Shown: positions 21,901 to 27,900 of the stretch, in pieces
How positions within the stretch are numbered: the first letter of the stretch is position 1
How the letters are laid out: every line of letters starts with the position of its first letter
Assembly: GCF_057098645.1 (NCBI RefSeq)
Contig: NZ_CM169472.1
DNA length: 64,000 nt
Strand: one strand, 5' to 3'
Made by a program: the position numbers

Positions 21901-24900
21901 CATAGTGATGCTGGCCTGCATAGGAACAAAGAACATCGCGAGGCTAATCACTGCCAGCAGGGCGTTCGTCCACCAGAAGATAGTGACTTTACATTTCCAG
22001 TCGGTCAGCGGTTTTGCCAGTGCGGAACCAATCAGGTTACCCACGCAATAAGTGGTGAGAAAAGCGACAAACACTTCCGGCGTACCCAAAATCCATGTGA
22101 CGTAATACATCATCGCTCCACCGCGGACGCACACCGCCAGGATATTGAAAATGGTTAGTAAACCGACAATCCGCCACTGGTCGTTTTGCCAGATATCACG
22201 TAAATCTTCCCGCATAGACGTCGTTGTAGGTGGTGCTTCAACGCGTTCTTTAGTGGTGAAGAAACAGAATGCCAGCATCATGAATGCCACCACGGAAAGG
22301 ACCGCGATACCGCCCTGGAAACCGAGTGGTTTATTATCACCGCCAATTAAATTAACCAGTGGCATCATCAGAACAGTAGAGAGCATGCCTCCCGCGGTCG
22401 CCAGCACAAAACGCCAGGATTGCAGCGAGATACGCTGAGTCGGGTCATTGGTGATTACACCACCCAATGCGCAGTAAGGGATATTGACGACGGTATAAAG
22501 TAAGGTAAGTAGGGTGTAAGTAATTGCTGCATAGATCATTTTGCCGTTCATACTGAGATCTGGCGTGCTATAGGCCAGTACACAGACGATCCCAAATGGC
22601 AGTGCGCCACACAGTACCCACGGACGAAATTTACCCCAGCGAGAGCGCGTTCGATCGGCCAACAACCCCATGCAAGGATCGGAAATCGCATCCAGTGCAC
22701 GAGCGACCAAAAACATGGTTCCGACAAATCCGGCAGGTATGCCAAAATTATCGGTATAAAAGAACATCATATATAACATTACGTTATCGAAAATAATGTG
22801 GCTGGCGGCGTCTCCCATGCCATAACCAATTTTCTCTTTAACGGACAACACTTCACTCATCATCTGCTTTTCCTTGATGCTATAGGGGTGCTGAGACCGA
22901 TAACGCATTTTGTAAACCATCCCTGTGAGAGCGAATATTCCGATATCTGGTTATTAATTTATGATTCTTGTTTTATGTGATCGTGGTAGCGTTAATTCCG
23001 CTCATATATCATTGTAAAATATGGGTTTTATATGAATTATAATGCTTTCGTGATAATACGCTGCGTGTATTAGGCGGAAAAAACTGATCTGGGGGATGTA
23101 GAAACTCAAGGAAGTAGCTATAATGCGCCCCGCCTCCATGTAGCAATCGAGGCGCGGAAGATCGTCGTCTCCGGTGAGGCGGCTGGACTTCAAATCCAGT
23201 TGGGGCCGCCAGCGGTCCCGGGCAGGTTCGACTCCTGTGATCTTCCGCCAAACCTCATCCAGCCAGTTCCGAGACACTCCATAAAATCATTTATATTCAA
23301 TGCGATGAATAATCAGCTTGTCCGTAATAGTCCGAGATCATCTCCCTGAATCCGCGAAAAATATGTATAGTAATGTGTATAGATTTTTTATACGTAGTTT
23401 TCAGTTATACACATGGCCCTAACCGATATACAGATCAAACGTGCAAAACCACAAGACAAACCATACACATTAAACGATGGACAAGGTCTGTCATTGCTTA
23501 TCAATCCCGATGGCTCGAAAGGCTGGCGTTTCCGTTTCCGGTTTGCAGGGAAAGCGCGGTTAATGTCATTTGGCAGCTACGATTTAGTAAGCCTCGCAGA
23601 AGCACGTGAGAAACGCGATACGGCTCGTAAGCAGGTAGCAAACGGCATTGATCCAGTAGCAGAGCGTAAGGCTCAGAAAATTGCTCAGAAATTATCAACT
23701 GAAAACTCTTTTGAGGCCGTTAGCAGAGAATGGCATGCAGCAAAAGCAGATCGCTGGACTTTAGCTTATCGCGAAGAAATTATTAAAACATTTGAACAGG
23801 ATGTTTTTCCTTTCATTGGTAAACGGCCAATAGCTGAAATTAAACCCCTAGAACTGCTTGAAGTTCTTAAACGCATAGAAAAACGTGGAGCGTTGGAGAA
23901 AACCAGAAAAGTACGTCAACGATGCGGAGAGGTGTTTCGCTACGCGATCATCACTGGCCGCGCTGAATACAATCCAGCACCTGATTTAGCTATCGCATTA
24001 GCTGTACCGAAGCAAAAACATCATCCTTTTCTATCAGCAGAAGAACTCCCTCATTTTGTCAGAGATCTTGAGGCTTACACAGGTAGCATAATCACTAAAA
24101 ATGCAACTAAAATTGTGATGCTTACTGGAGTCAGGACACAGGAAATGCGTTTTGCCACTTGGGACGAAATTGATTTACAAAAAAAGGTATGGGAAATACC
24201 GGCCGAACGAATGAAAATGCGCCGACCACATCTTGTACCACTCTCCACTCAAGTAGTTGAAATTTTTCAACAACTCAAGCTAATCACCAAAAACTATCCA
24301 TATATTTTTATCGGCCGTAATAATCACACTAAGCCAATTTCTAAAGAAAGTGTATCCCAAGTAATAGAATTACTTGGCTATAAAGGAAGAGCTACGGGCC
24401 ACGGATTCCGCCATACAATGTCTACTATTTTGCATGAGTACGGATTTAACAGCGAATGGATAGAATTACAATTGGCTCATGTTGATAAGAATAGTATTCG
24501 AGGCACTTATAATCATGCCCAATATTTAGAAAAGAGAAGTTCTATGATGCAGTGGTACAGTGATTATATCCTTAATAGAGATAAAGCATAGAATAATAGA
24601 AGTTAATGCTGTATACTGTAAATTAACAATATAGTAAGGATTGAAAATGAAGAAGACAGTACTTATAACTGATTTAGATAACACACTATTCGACTGGTTT
24701 AGCGTTTGGTATCATAGCTTTAATGCAATGCTAAATAAAGTCGTTGAGATTTCCGGTTTTTCTAAAGACGAGCTTATTGCACAGATAAAACCAATTCATC
24801 AAAAATATGGTACTGCCGAATACTCTTTTATTCTAGAAAGCATACCTCTTTTACAAGAAAAATATGGTGATAGAAACTCCATCAATTTAGTTATGGATGA

Positions 24901-27900
24901 TGCTATACACGCTTTCAGAAGTGAGAGAAAGAAATATCTTTCTCTGTACCCAACAGTAATGGACACTTTGAGTGTATTAAAAAGTAAAGGGTGTTATATT
25001 GTCGCGTATACTGAATCCAAAGCTTATTACTCCAATTTCCGCTTAACAAGATTAGGATTAGATGGTGTGATTGATGTCCTTTTCTCTCCTGAAGATCATG
25101 AAATCCCTGATGGTGAGAAAAAACAAGATAAATATAATCTAATGCTGACAAAGCAAGAATATACACCTATTGATGAAATTAAACCAAACCCACAACTTCT
25201 TCTGGACATAATAAAATCAATTGGTGCCACACCAGAAGAGTGTGTATATATAGGTGACAGTGAAATGAAAGATATAGAAATGGCCCAAAAAGCAAACGTA
25301 TCAGATGTTTTTGCAAGCTATGGAACGAATCATTTTGAAGAGAACAAGGAGGGATATGAATTACTCCGTGCGGTAACCCACTGGACTGATGCTGATGTTG
25401 AAAGGGAAAGAAAAATTAAAGAAAATGCCTTCGGAGCAAAACCCACATATGTAGCCAAACAATTTTCAGATATTTTGTCTTTTTTTGAATTTACAAAATT
25501 TAAAGGAAAATAGAATGAACGATCTAGAATTAAAGAAACATGATGACGCTATAAAATTAGAAAATCTCAAGTTGAAAATTGATATCTGGAAGACAGTTGT
25601 TGACGTTCAGAAACATTTTAATGATCTTGAGATGAAGGTTAGAAACTTCGGAATTTTGATCTTGTCTGCATTTATTGGTGCAATTGGTGTAAGCTTTAAT
25701 TCCGGCGCTGAATTTATAGCCTTTGGCAATCATTACTCTGTTGCTGCCATTCTTGCTTTCGGGGCATCTGTTGTTTGGTTGTTATTTTATTTTGTTGACG
25801 TTTACTGGTATCACCCATTACTTCTTGGAGCTGTAAAGAAAGGTTCAGAACTCGAAAAAGAAATTGCATCCGACATCCCAGGAATTAATCTTACAGAAAC
25901 CATAGGAAAAAGTAGCCCAAAAGATATTTTGCTCTGGAAAAATATGCATAGTACTGGAAAAGCTAACCTTTTCTACTTTGGGGTTTTAGCTGTTCTGTTA
26001 ACTATTTTTATTTCTCTACTGTGCTTTAAAGCCCCGCAAAAGACAAATCAACTAAATGAATTAAATATTAAAGCAAATTGCACTAGAAACAGTAATTACA
26101 ATGGAGTTAATTGCATTATCGCATCACAGCCAAGTGACAACAAATAGTGCACTTTATCACTCTTTACCCCAACTGCATGTACTTACCTTGTGAGCACAGA
26201 GACGCGCTATAAATAAACACTTTACTGCTGGCGGGCGGTGCTTTCCCCGCCTCGCCCGCCCGCTTTGCAGGGCGGTTTTAATGCAGTTGCACAGTCACGC
26301 TCAGGCTGCGCCGGGAATGGCGCGGTCTGCAGAGAATGAGGCAGGAAAACGCATGCAAAGCCATGCACCTTATCGATGCATGGCTTTTTTCAGTAAAAAC
26401 GGGAGGATTTTCGGGGAATTTTACACAGACTGACGTGATGCCAGTTGCGCACTTTTACGCGAAAAAATCATGTTCTGCGCAGGGGTGAATTTTTCACGGC
26501 TGTCATCCACCGAAGCCGCGTCAGGCCTGAATCCGATGGTCGTTAAAATGTCGCTATCCTGTGCGGAATAATTAATTTTTTCACCCTTCGCAAGCCAGGA
26601 CAGGAGGGCTTCACGCAGGGCATCTGTGGCACGCTGTATGGCACAGTTTCGGGCAATGGCCGTCAGCTCACTGTAGCCCATCAGCTCCGGTGCCAGTGCC
26701 GCCGCCAGTGCTGTGCCGTGCTGCTGCATAAAATCATTCAGCCGATCGCGGATGCTGATGTGCTGAACGGCTTCATGCGAACGAATATAACGACCGGCGG
26801 CCTGATTCACCTGCCATTTTCTGACTTCGATAATATTGCGTAATTCGTCCAGGCGACTGACGTTTCTGCCTTCTCCTGACAGAAGCCGCAGATATTCCTG
26901 TTCGGCCGCAGCCAGCTCATTTTTGCGTTGCAGCCATGCTGCTTTGTTATTCTGACAGGTGTCAAAGGCCTGCTGTAAGGCTGTGCTTTCCATCGTTATC
27001 TCTTTCTCATCATGCTGAAGAATAAAAATACGGTGTGCGGCGACGGCCGGGGTTAACCGGCAGCCCTCATTCCAGACGCAGCGAATATGATTGTGTTTTT
27101 AACCGTACTGGCGGCAGTTCCTGTTTTTCATGCAGGCTTTCTGCCAGTTCGTCCGGCGTGACCGGGCGGACAATGAAGCGGTTGATGGTCTGAAGCGTTT
27201 TAAACACCAGACCACAGCCCGGATCCGTGCACACATAAAAACGCTCGGTGACTTCCTGAGACAGACGCCGCGATGTTCTTGACAGCGCAAGGCCTTTACA
27301 TCTCCGACAACAATATCCGGTAACAAGCATTCTTTTCGGGCGCTTCATGCTACCGGAGGCTGACGTCAGTGAATCGCGGTATCTCTGTTTGCCTGAAATG
27401 TATTCCATTCCTGAATCTTTACAGTCAGAGAAAAAGCTTTCACTCGCTTCAAATGTCGCAGAGCAATAAATATTCCGGCACTGTGCAATCATTATCTTGG
27501 TGCCATCGTCCATGAAATGTGCGCGACGGGTGTGAGCAACATGTCCACACGACGGGCAGTAAATCATGACAGCAGTCCTCTGGCCTTAAGCACTGCTCCC
27601 TGCTGGTCTATTTTGTCCTGCCACACCTTGCGCTGTGCCGGTGTGCCTGCCACCTCATAATCCATGTGCGGGAGTGTTGCCGCTGACAGTCCGGTCAGCC
27701 GGAGAACCGGCTCGCCGGTGAGGCTGATTTGCATCTGTTTTATTTTCTGTTCCAGCGATGATTTCACCTGCTGCGTATTCCGCTCTATTCGATCACGGAT
27801 TGGCATCGAAGTCCGATCAGCGATTCGCATCCATTCGATCAACCGGGAACTTAACTTTTTCTACCGCTTTTTAACGCGTTTTTTCGCTGCTTTCCACTAC

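Follow-up and report, generated by a model that had tools for sequence, protein, structure and literature searches.

The misB-misC cassette of a P4-like satellite is almost certainly a copy of the described Hydrolase + 3TM (type II Metis) defence system

The misB-misC gene pair lies in the cargo slot of a P4-like satellite on contig NZ_CM169472.1 (assembly GCF_057098645.1), within a stretch of 64,000 nucleotides referred to here as the window. misB (24647..25513, + strand) encodes a 288-amino-acid phosphatase of the HAD superfamily, with an ATG start at 24647 and a TAG stop at 25511-25513. misC (25515..26147, + strand) starts with ATG at 25515 and encodes a 210-amino-acid effector with three transmembrane (TM) segments. 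The ORF listing and direct reading also gave an alternative in-frame TTG start for the misB open reading frame (ORF) at 24641; ATG 24647 is the likely start, and the resulting 288 residues agree with RefSeq and with Rousset et al. (PMC9122126). An earlier interpretation of this DNA from its letters alone (the sequence-only reading) had placed the cassette at 24641-26150. Both genes stand, while the ends are corrected to 24647 (likely) and 26147. Each gene has its own Shine-Dalgarno sequence, AAGGA, as read from the sequence. That of misB is at 24636..24640 (+), 6 nucleotides 5' of the ATG, and that of misC is at 25503..25507 (+), within the 3' end of misB and 7 nucleotides 5' of the misC ATG. 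A single nucleotide separates the misB stop codon from the misC ATG, a spacing indicative of translational coupling. The guanine-plus-cytosine (GC) content is 0.341 for misB and 0.346 for misC, compared with 0.414 for int, 0.529 for psu and 0.61 for alpha in the same satellite. Such low values are typical of horizontally acquired cargo. The ORFs, the AAGGA sites and the GC content of 0.34-0.35 bear out the description of two tightly coupled, AT-rich genes with a ribosome-binding site each.

MisB carries the HAD motifs I (DLDNT, residues 9-13, with D9, D11 and T13), II (IVAYTE, 118-123, with T122), III (K179) and IV (GDSEMKD, 203-209, with G203-D204 and D209). Motifs I, II and IV had already led to a prediction of phosphatase or nucleotidase activity, to which K179 and a match to Pfam PF00702 (E = 1.5e-14) are now added. 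The PADLOC model PDLC03008 "Hydrolase" matches over positions 1-288 of 288 (E = 6.1e-198). Its identity is 40% to the MisB from E. coli 401675, which has been characterised biochemically, 37% to that from E. coli 402837 and 34-35% to that from Phyllobacterium. Alignment of these four proteins gave 40 invariant columns, which include every catalytic motif. The catalytic residues and a C-terminal signature, H245-W246...R253-E254, are invariant across the MisB proteins of type I and type II Metis, the two classes discussed below. A PDB sequence search with MisB returned only generic HAD phosphatases, at E-values of at least 6e-5.

A HAD phosphatase beside a membrane protein could also form a housekeeping operon of the phosphoglycolate phosphatase or pyrophosphatase type, with no anti-phage role. 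Weak NCBIfam similarity to phosphoglycolate phosphatase, PpaX and YjjG models is in line with this idea, but the best equivalog match (NF009695) scores 46.9 bits where the curated cut-off is 225, the others score lower, and only the C-terminal HAD core is matched. Moreover, the cassette is rare, AT-rich and restricted to a mobile-element hotspot; it was found in 7 of 5,426 complete E. coli genomes, at 99.8-99.9% identity. Essentially identical proteins conferred T7 resistance (PMC9122126). A housekeeping role is therefore extremely improbable, and Gph/PGP, PpaX, YjjG and MupP were rejected as identities because of the sub-cut-off scores and the published defence activity.

MisC begins with a charged helix, in which residues 1-41 hold 8 K/R and 9 D/E. 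Hydropathy gives three hydrophobic segments, TM1 (42-65), TM2 (73-98) and TM3 (148-175). The charge distribution suggests an N-in topology, with the amphipathic N-terminal helix and the loop 99-147 in the cytoplasm and the C-terminal tail, including C189 and C200, outside. An AlphaFold2 monomer model built on a 33-sequence alignment has a mean predicted local distance difference test score (pLDDT) of 80 and a predicted template modelling score (pTM) of 0.66, and its helices match the hydropathy profile. It consists of a helix at 3-63 that includes TM1, a short hairpin at 66-75, a helix at 76-118 formed by TM2 and a cytoplasmic extension, a helix at 146-170 corresponding to TM3, and a C-terminal beta-hairpin at 186-203. 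Hydropathy and model thus agree with the charged N-terminal helix and three membrane helices proposed earlier for gene 2. The PADLOC model PDLC03009 "Hydrolase-TM" matches MisC over positions 1-210 of 210 (E = 7.5e-141). NCBIfam and PHROG searches with MisC gave no match, and the sole Pfam match was a sub-threshold one to 8xMP (octameric membrane protein; E = 0.07). A homologue search found 76 relatives at 35-100% identity in Enterobacterales, Vibrionales, Aeromonas, Shewanella, Alteromonadales and Sulfuricaulis, and no Pfam domain was found among these 76. The cysteine pair C189/C200 (window 26079-26114) falls within the predicted beta-hairpin of the outer tail and may form a periplasmic disulfide. 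It is kept in the Enterobacterales homologues and absent from those of Vibrio, Alteromonadales and Phyllobacterium.

The cassette is almost certainly the defence system already described as Rst_Hydrolase-3Tm, as Hydrolase-TM in PADLOC and as misB-misC of type II Metis. In 2022, Rousset et al. reported a pair of a HAD-like hydrolase and a TM protein from a P4 hotspot that specifically inhibits T7, and suggested abortive infection for this pair (PMC9122126). Their Table S2A gives it as pFR97, "Hydrolase + 3TM", from the P4 hotspot of E. coli 2862600, together with the cloned DNA and both proteins (PMC9122126). MisB of the window is identical to pFR97 protein 1 at 288 of 288 residues, and MisC is identical to protein 2 at 208 of 210, with the differences D3N and A173S. 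Over the first 399 nucleotides compared with pFR97 there is one mismatch, which is silent. Both genes, their order, the P4 int-cos/psu hotspot and the upstream region from window position 24497 are common to the two loci. Apart from the two MisC substitutions, the window locus differs in an IS21-family insertion in the sid gene of its satellite. No functional difference from pFR97 is expected, and T7 protection is ascribed to the window pair from the 100% and 99% identical proteins that were shown to be active elsewhere.

The name Rst_Hydrolase-3Tm comes from DefenseFinder-based surveys. The features by which this system and its PADLOC counterpart are recognised are all present here, namely the hydrolase model, the three-TM partner model and adjacent genes on the same strand. 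E. coli E6, one of the seven genomes in which the cassette was found, carries 100% identical proteins, WP_000754434.1 (misB) and WP_000998640.1 (misC), in the same yicJ-selC-int setting according to the RefSeq annotation. The sequence-only reading had taken the pair to be undescribed and unnamed, and this part is overturned by the full-length PADLOC matches, the 100% and 99% identity to pFR97 and the misB/misC annotation. Its proposal of an anti-phage cassette with a three-TM effector of the abortive-infection type is upheld by the T7 protection that the pFR97 proteins provide.

The pFR97 insert starts at window position 24497, and its reverse-primer site corresponds to 26264-26283. The upstream region 24497..24646 (+), which comprises the 3' end of int and a 55-nucleotide intergenic spacer, is therefore present in a functional clone. 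Because this insert is active from its native promoter, the promoter is presumed to lie within 24497..24646. A consensus scan of the + strand upstream of misB found no strong or convincing sigma-70 promoter, so a misB promoter is inferred only because the native-promoter clone works. The hexamer TATACT (24612-24617) may be a -10 element of misB-misC. Downstream, a GC-rich hairpin followed by a T-run at 26256-26275, adjoining cos, resembles a terminator and could end misBC transcription.

The two genes also occur together outside this locus. In all six divergent MisC homologues examined (35-75% identity), a HAD gene of 287-310 amino acids lies directly upstream on the same strand. The Serratia and Yersinia pairs occupy P4-like int-delta slots, and the pairs of Aeromonas, Vibrio, a metagenome contig and Sulfuricaulis are found at other locations. 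Recurrence as a conserved pair, which the sequence-only reading had proposed as a check, was thus seen in 6 of 6 homologues, including two in P4-like slots. A second E. coli allele, WP_000754433 + WP_001251755, is present in 5 of the 5,426 complete genomes. In NCTC8623 (locus 1853-3366) it has the same selC P4 slot and architecture, whereas its MisB is 84% and its MisC 63% identical to the window proteins. This allele is listed in Table S1A of Rousset et al. (PMC9122126). Between the E. coli alleles, divergence is thus much faster in the effector MisC than in the phosphatase MisB. On the JGI metagenome contig Ga0506494_0002197 (112-6576), a distant misB-misC pair with a 44% identical MisC stands beside two N6_N4 DNA methyltransferase genes and a 775-amino-acid ORF. 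In this single case the neighbourhood may be a restriction-modification system, or it could represent a self-supplied methylase like the "type III Metis" idea of the preprint described next.

Osterman et al., in a preprint of November 2025 (bioRxiv 10.1101/2025.11.05.686725), named this family type II Metis and its genes misB and misC. They cited a MisC/MisB homologue for which protection against T7 had previously been shown, the operon of E. coli 2862600, and their Table S1 places the 2862600 pair among the TM-partnered MisB proteins (10.1101/2025.11.05.686725). Type I Metis consists of MisA and MisB, protects against T2, T4, T5, T6 and T7, and requires Dam (10.1101/2025.11.05.686725). Phages that escape it carry mutations in denA, which encodes the endonuclease that starts host-DNA degradation (10.1101/2025.11.05.686725). 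MisA is an NAD+ diphosphatase specifically activated by N6-methyl-deoxyadenosine monophosphate (m6dAMP) (10.1101/2025.11.05.686725). Purified type I MisB converts m6dAMP to the nucleoside m6dA; it is dispensable for defence, prevents autotoxicity and gives no defence by itself (10.1101/2025.11.05.686725). The window shares the MisB module with type I Metis at 37-40% identity, with the same catalytic motifs and the C-terminal HW...RE signature. The effectors differ, since MisA combines a PUA-like domain with a calcineurin-like (PF00149) NAD+ diphosphatase and the window encodes MisC. Type I Metis was rejected as the identity of the cassette because no MisA or phosphoesterase ORF lies between int and cos. 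Table S2 of Rousset et al. contains another P4-hotspot pair, pFR96 "Phosphoesterase + HAD" of E. coli HVH3, which had no activity in their panel (PMC9122126). Because the architecture of this pair is that of type I Metis, both Metis types seem to be carried in P4 slots.

Type II Metis uses a three-TM effector and is Dam-dependent; T6 denA mutants escape it, and exogenous m6dAMP arrests growth (10.1101/2025.11.05.686725). The MisC mutant L110A loses defence and the MisB mutant D9N keeps it (10.1101/2025.11.05.686725). AlphaFold3 places m6dAMP in an intracellular pocket of MisC and predicts an octameric ring, and m6dAMP binding is predicted for every one of a diverse set of MisC homologues (10.1101/2025.11.05.686725). 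The features of type II Metis are found in the window, namely a HAD MisB with D9/D11, an adjacent three-TM MisC and the pocket leucine, L103. The pair of Phyllobacterium sp. UNC302MFCol5.2 likewise has a HAD MisB with the catalytic D9 and a three-TM MisC with L110, the counterpart of L103. It differs in sequence, MisC being 29% and MisB 34-35% identical to the window proteins; the MisC proteins are nevertheless homologous (pairwise E = 1e-12).

Conservation in MisC was assessed in an alignment of 33 homologues that includes the true Phyllobacterium MisC. Sixteen positions are invariant: W25, Q32, H34, F35, N36, R43, D95, Y99, H100, L103, G105, V107, E114, S134, K149 and Y154. L103, which aligns with the mutated L110 of the preprint, is one of them. 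All sixteen lie in the N-terminal helix, in the loop that follows TM2 or in the neighbouring ends of the TM segments, and would face the cytoplasm under the N-in topology. This placement is consistent with an intracellular ligand site.

The mechanism proposed for the window pair by homology with the preprint starts with Dam, which methylates GATC sites of the host. A lytic phage that degrades this methylated DNA would then release m6dAMP. The nucleotide would be bound by the cytoplasmic pocket of MisC, formed by W25, Q32 and H34-F35-N36 of the N-terminal helix and by Y99-H100, L103, G105, V107 and E114 after TM2. Bound MisC would turn toxic, probably by forming an octameric pore in the membrane, and the infection would be aborted. 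MisB would act as a Mg-dependent HAD 5'-nucleotidase with D9 as nucleophile and would convert basal, repair-derived m6dAMP into inert m6dA. MisC would stay silent through MisB until phage-released m6dAMP overwhelms this enzyme. By analogy with the Metis experiments, MisB would thus be a threshold-setting, antitoxin-like enzyme, a safety valve and not the effector, and MisC would be both sensor and effector. T7 degrades host DNA, and its inhibition therefore fits the Metis model.

The roles could also be reversed, with the HAD enzyme as an effector that depletes nucleotides by dephosphorylating deoxynucleoside monophosphates or nucleoside triphosphates and the TM protein as a sensor or anchor. 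Nucleotide-depleting defence enzymes exist, and the HAD domain of MisB is intact with all catalytic motifs present. However, MisB D9N retains defence while a MisC point mutant loses it, and type I MisB alone gives no defence (10.1101/2025.11.05.686725). In addition, one and the same MisB family serves two unrelated effectors, MisA and MisC, which would be expected if MisB were an accessory module. An effector role of the HAD enzyme is thus very unlikely. The enzyme-plus-membrane pairing suspected in the sequence-only reading does defend; the division of labour that it implied does not agree with the preprint, in which the HAD enzyme is unneeded for defence.

The m6dAMP mechanism is likely to hold for the window allele by analogy with the preprint, and several points weigh against it. 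It rests on a single unreviewed preprint (10.1101/2025.11.05.686725), whose type II experiments are attributed to the Phyllobacterium pair, with the 29% (MisC) and 34-35% (MisB) identity given above. Those assays were performed at 25 C with arabinose induction (10.1101/2025.11.05.686725). The protection seen by Rousset et al., from the native promoter at 37 C, was limited to T7 in a panel of eight phages (PMC9122126). This spectrum is narrower than the model, because Metis predicts protection against other host-DNA-degrading phages (T4 and T5, if they were in the panel). Both the bound ligand and the octameric pore come from AlphaFold3 predictions. The similarity to Pfam 8xMP, which would suit an octameric pore, is weak across the MisC family, with 8 of 33 homologues at E<=0.1 and none of 33 at E<=0.001. 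In full-text papers, "8xMP" turned up only as an unrelated PDB code. A PDB sequence search found no solved structure like MisC, and Foldseek with the AlphaFold2 model gave only long-helix proteins (best E = 0.52). The window MisC also has D3N and A173S relative to the assayed pFR97 protein.

The labels of the preprint constructs add to these points. In the part of its Supplementary Table 3 that was available, the first 399 nucleotides of the "Phyllobacterium" type II sequence equal window 24647-25045 less one base and have a GC content of 0.34. The 399 nucleotides labelled "Phyllobacterium sp. UNC302MFCol5.2 type II Metis" are thus E. coli 2862600 misB. In the accessible strain entries, strains 521/522 are labelled "Metis UNC302MFCol5.2" and their plasmid is given as "Metis 2862600". 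Residue 110 of the window MisC is Gly, so the numbering of L110A is right only for the true Phyllobacterium MisC. This looks like a labelling error in Supplementary Table 3, or else the constructs are uncertain. Should the E. coli sequence have been the one used, the mechanism would already be shown for essentially the window allele. Those who reuse the constructs of the preprint should check the Supplementary Table 3 labels.

The T7-only spectrum of the Rousset panel (PMC9122126), the 29% identity to the Phyllobacterium MisC and the fast divergence of MisC within E. coli (63% between alleles, against 84% for MisB) would also suit another version of the same known system. In this version, the P4-borne E. 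coli allele is triggered by a different nucleotide or by a T7-specific product, and MisB removes that trigger. Such a trigger is unlikely. The motif YH-x-x-L-x-G-A-V around the pocket leucine and the motif Q-x-HFN are invariant from E. coli to Phyllobacterium and Sulfuricaulis, and m6dAMP binding is predicted for diverse MisC homologues (10.1101/2025.11.05.686725). In addition, the strain entries that could be consulted suggest that the 2862600 plasmid may have served in the dam experiments. Any departure of the E. coli satellite allele from the Metis model, whether through another trigger or through a T7-restricted spectrum beyond host-DNA degradation, is judged rather improbable. The described Hydrolase + 3TM system acting through m6dAMP is, with good confidence, the best combined explanation.

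The satellite that carries the cassette is integrated at the tRNA-Sec gene selC (23156..23250, +; ARAGORN). The attL core at 23221-23243 recurs as attR at 36345-36367 (direct repeat D6, 87% identity), and the satellite therefore extends over about 23.2-36.4 kb of the window. Its P4-type tyrosine integrase gene int (23413..24591, +) forms the left boundary of the slot (NCBIfam NF007246, E = 1.1e-86) and agrees with the RefSeq annotation of the neighbouring gene. On the other side, the 19-nucleotide sequence GGCGAGGCGGGGAAAGCAC at 26238..26256 (- strand; exact match), which we take to be the P2/P4 cohesive end (cos), bounds the cargo slot. The same GGCGAGGCGGGGAAAGCAC is also found within the P4 clone of Table S2A of Rousset et al. 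(PMC9122126). The polarity suppression gene psu (26421..26993, -) is the right boundary and matches phrog_6366 over its full length (E = 2e-100). Profile matches identify delta at 27067-27567 and the alpha primase at 33544-35877. The core set of a P4-like satellite, comprising int, cos, psu, delta, sid, alpha, the tRNA gene and the flanking att repeats, was found, with sid interrupted by an insertion. Between int and cos there are only two ORFs, misB and misC, and the earlier placement of the pair between the integrase and cos/psu agrees with these coordinates.

The sid gene (capsid size determination) is split by an IS21-family insertion sequence element with istB at 27871-28869 and istA at 28643-30289, both on the - strand. 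Its fragments are an ORF at 30394-30957, which matches phrog_6165 positions 2-179, and an ORF at 27564-27839, which matches positions 174-241. Redirection to small capsids is probably defective in this satellite, whereas its defence cargo is intact. Two sets of direct repeats were also observed. One, at 35923-36223 between the alpha primase and attR, has two 120-nucleotide units that are 83% identical, and the other, at 37240-37500 just past the satellite, has 55- and 52-nucleotide units that are 89-98% identical.

At selC in E. coli WWCOL-236 there is a sister satellite whose backbone is closely related and whose int-psu slot holds a different two-gene cargo (locus 1994-4018). This cargo encodes the hypothetical proteins WP_063815092.1 and WP_063815093.1, of 302 and 370 amino acids. 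The comparison directly demonstrates cargo swapping in this slot. The WWCOL-236 satellite also has an IS21-family (ISSso4) element, at a position different from that in the window satellite. In phage P4 itself (NC_001609), the same int-psu/cos slot holds gop-beta-cII, a cargo that likewise acts against phages, in its case lambda and P1 (PMC9122126). Its proteins are unrelated to the window pair, and its phage spectrum is different.

The cassette is therefore a further copy of a system that was validated in 2022, is catalogued in PADLOC and in DefenseFinder-based surveys, and received a proposed mechanism in the 2025 preprint. Its value as a discovery is small. It serves as a positive control, because a defence cassette and its architecture were picked out from raw sequence alone. 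MisC with D3N and A173S is a natural variant within a satellite whose sid is disrupted by an insertion sequence. Temperate phages do not shred host DNA, and a P2-like helper should accordingly not trigger misBC. Satellites might favour misBC because it would kill competing lytic phages and leave their temperate P2-like helper unharmed.

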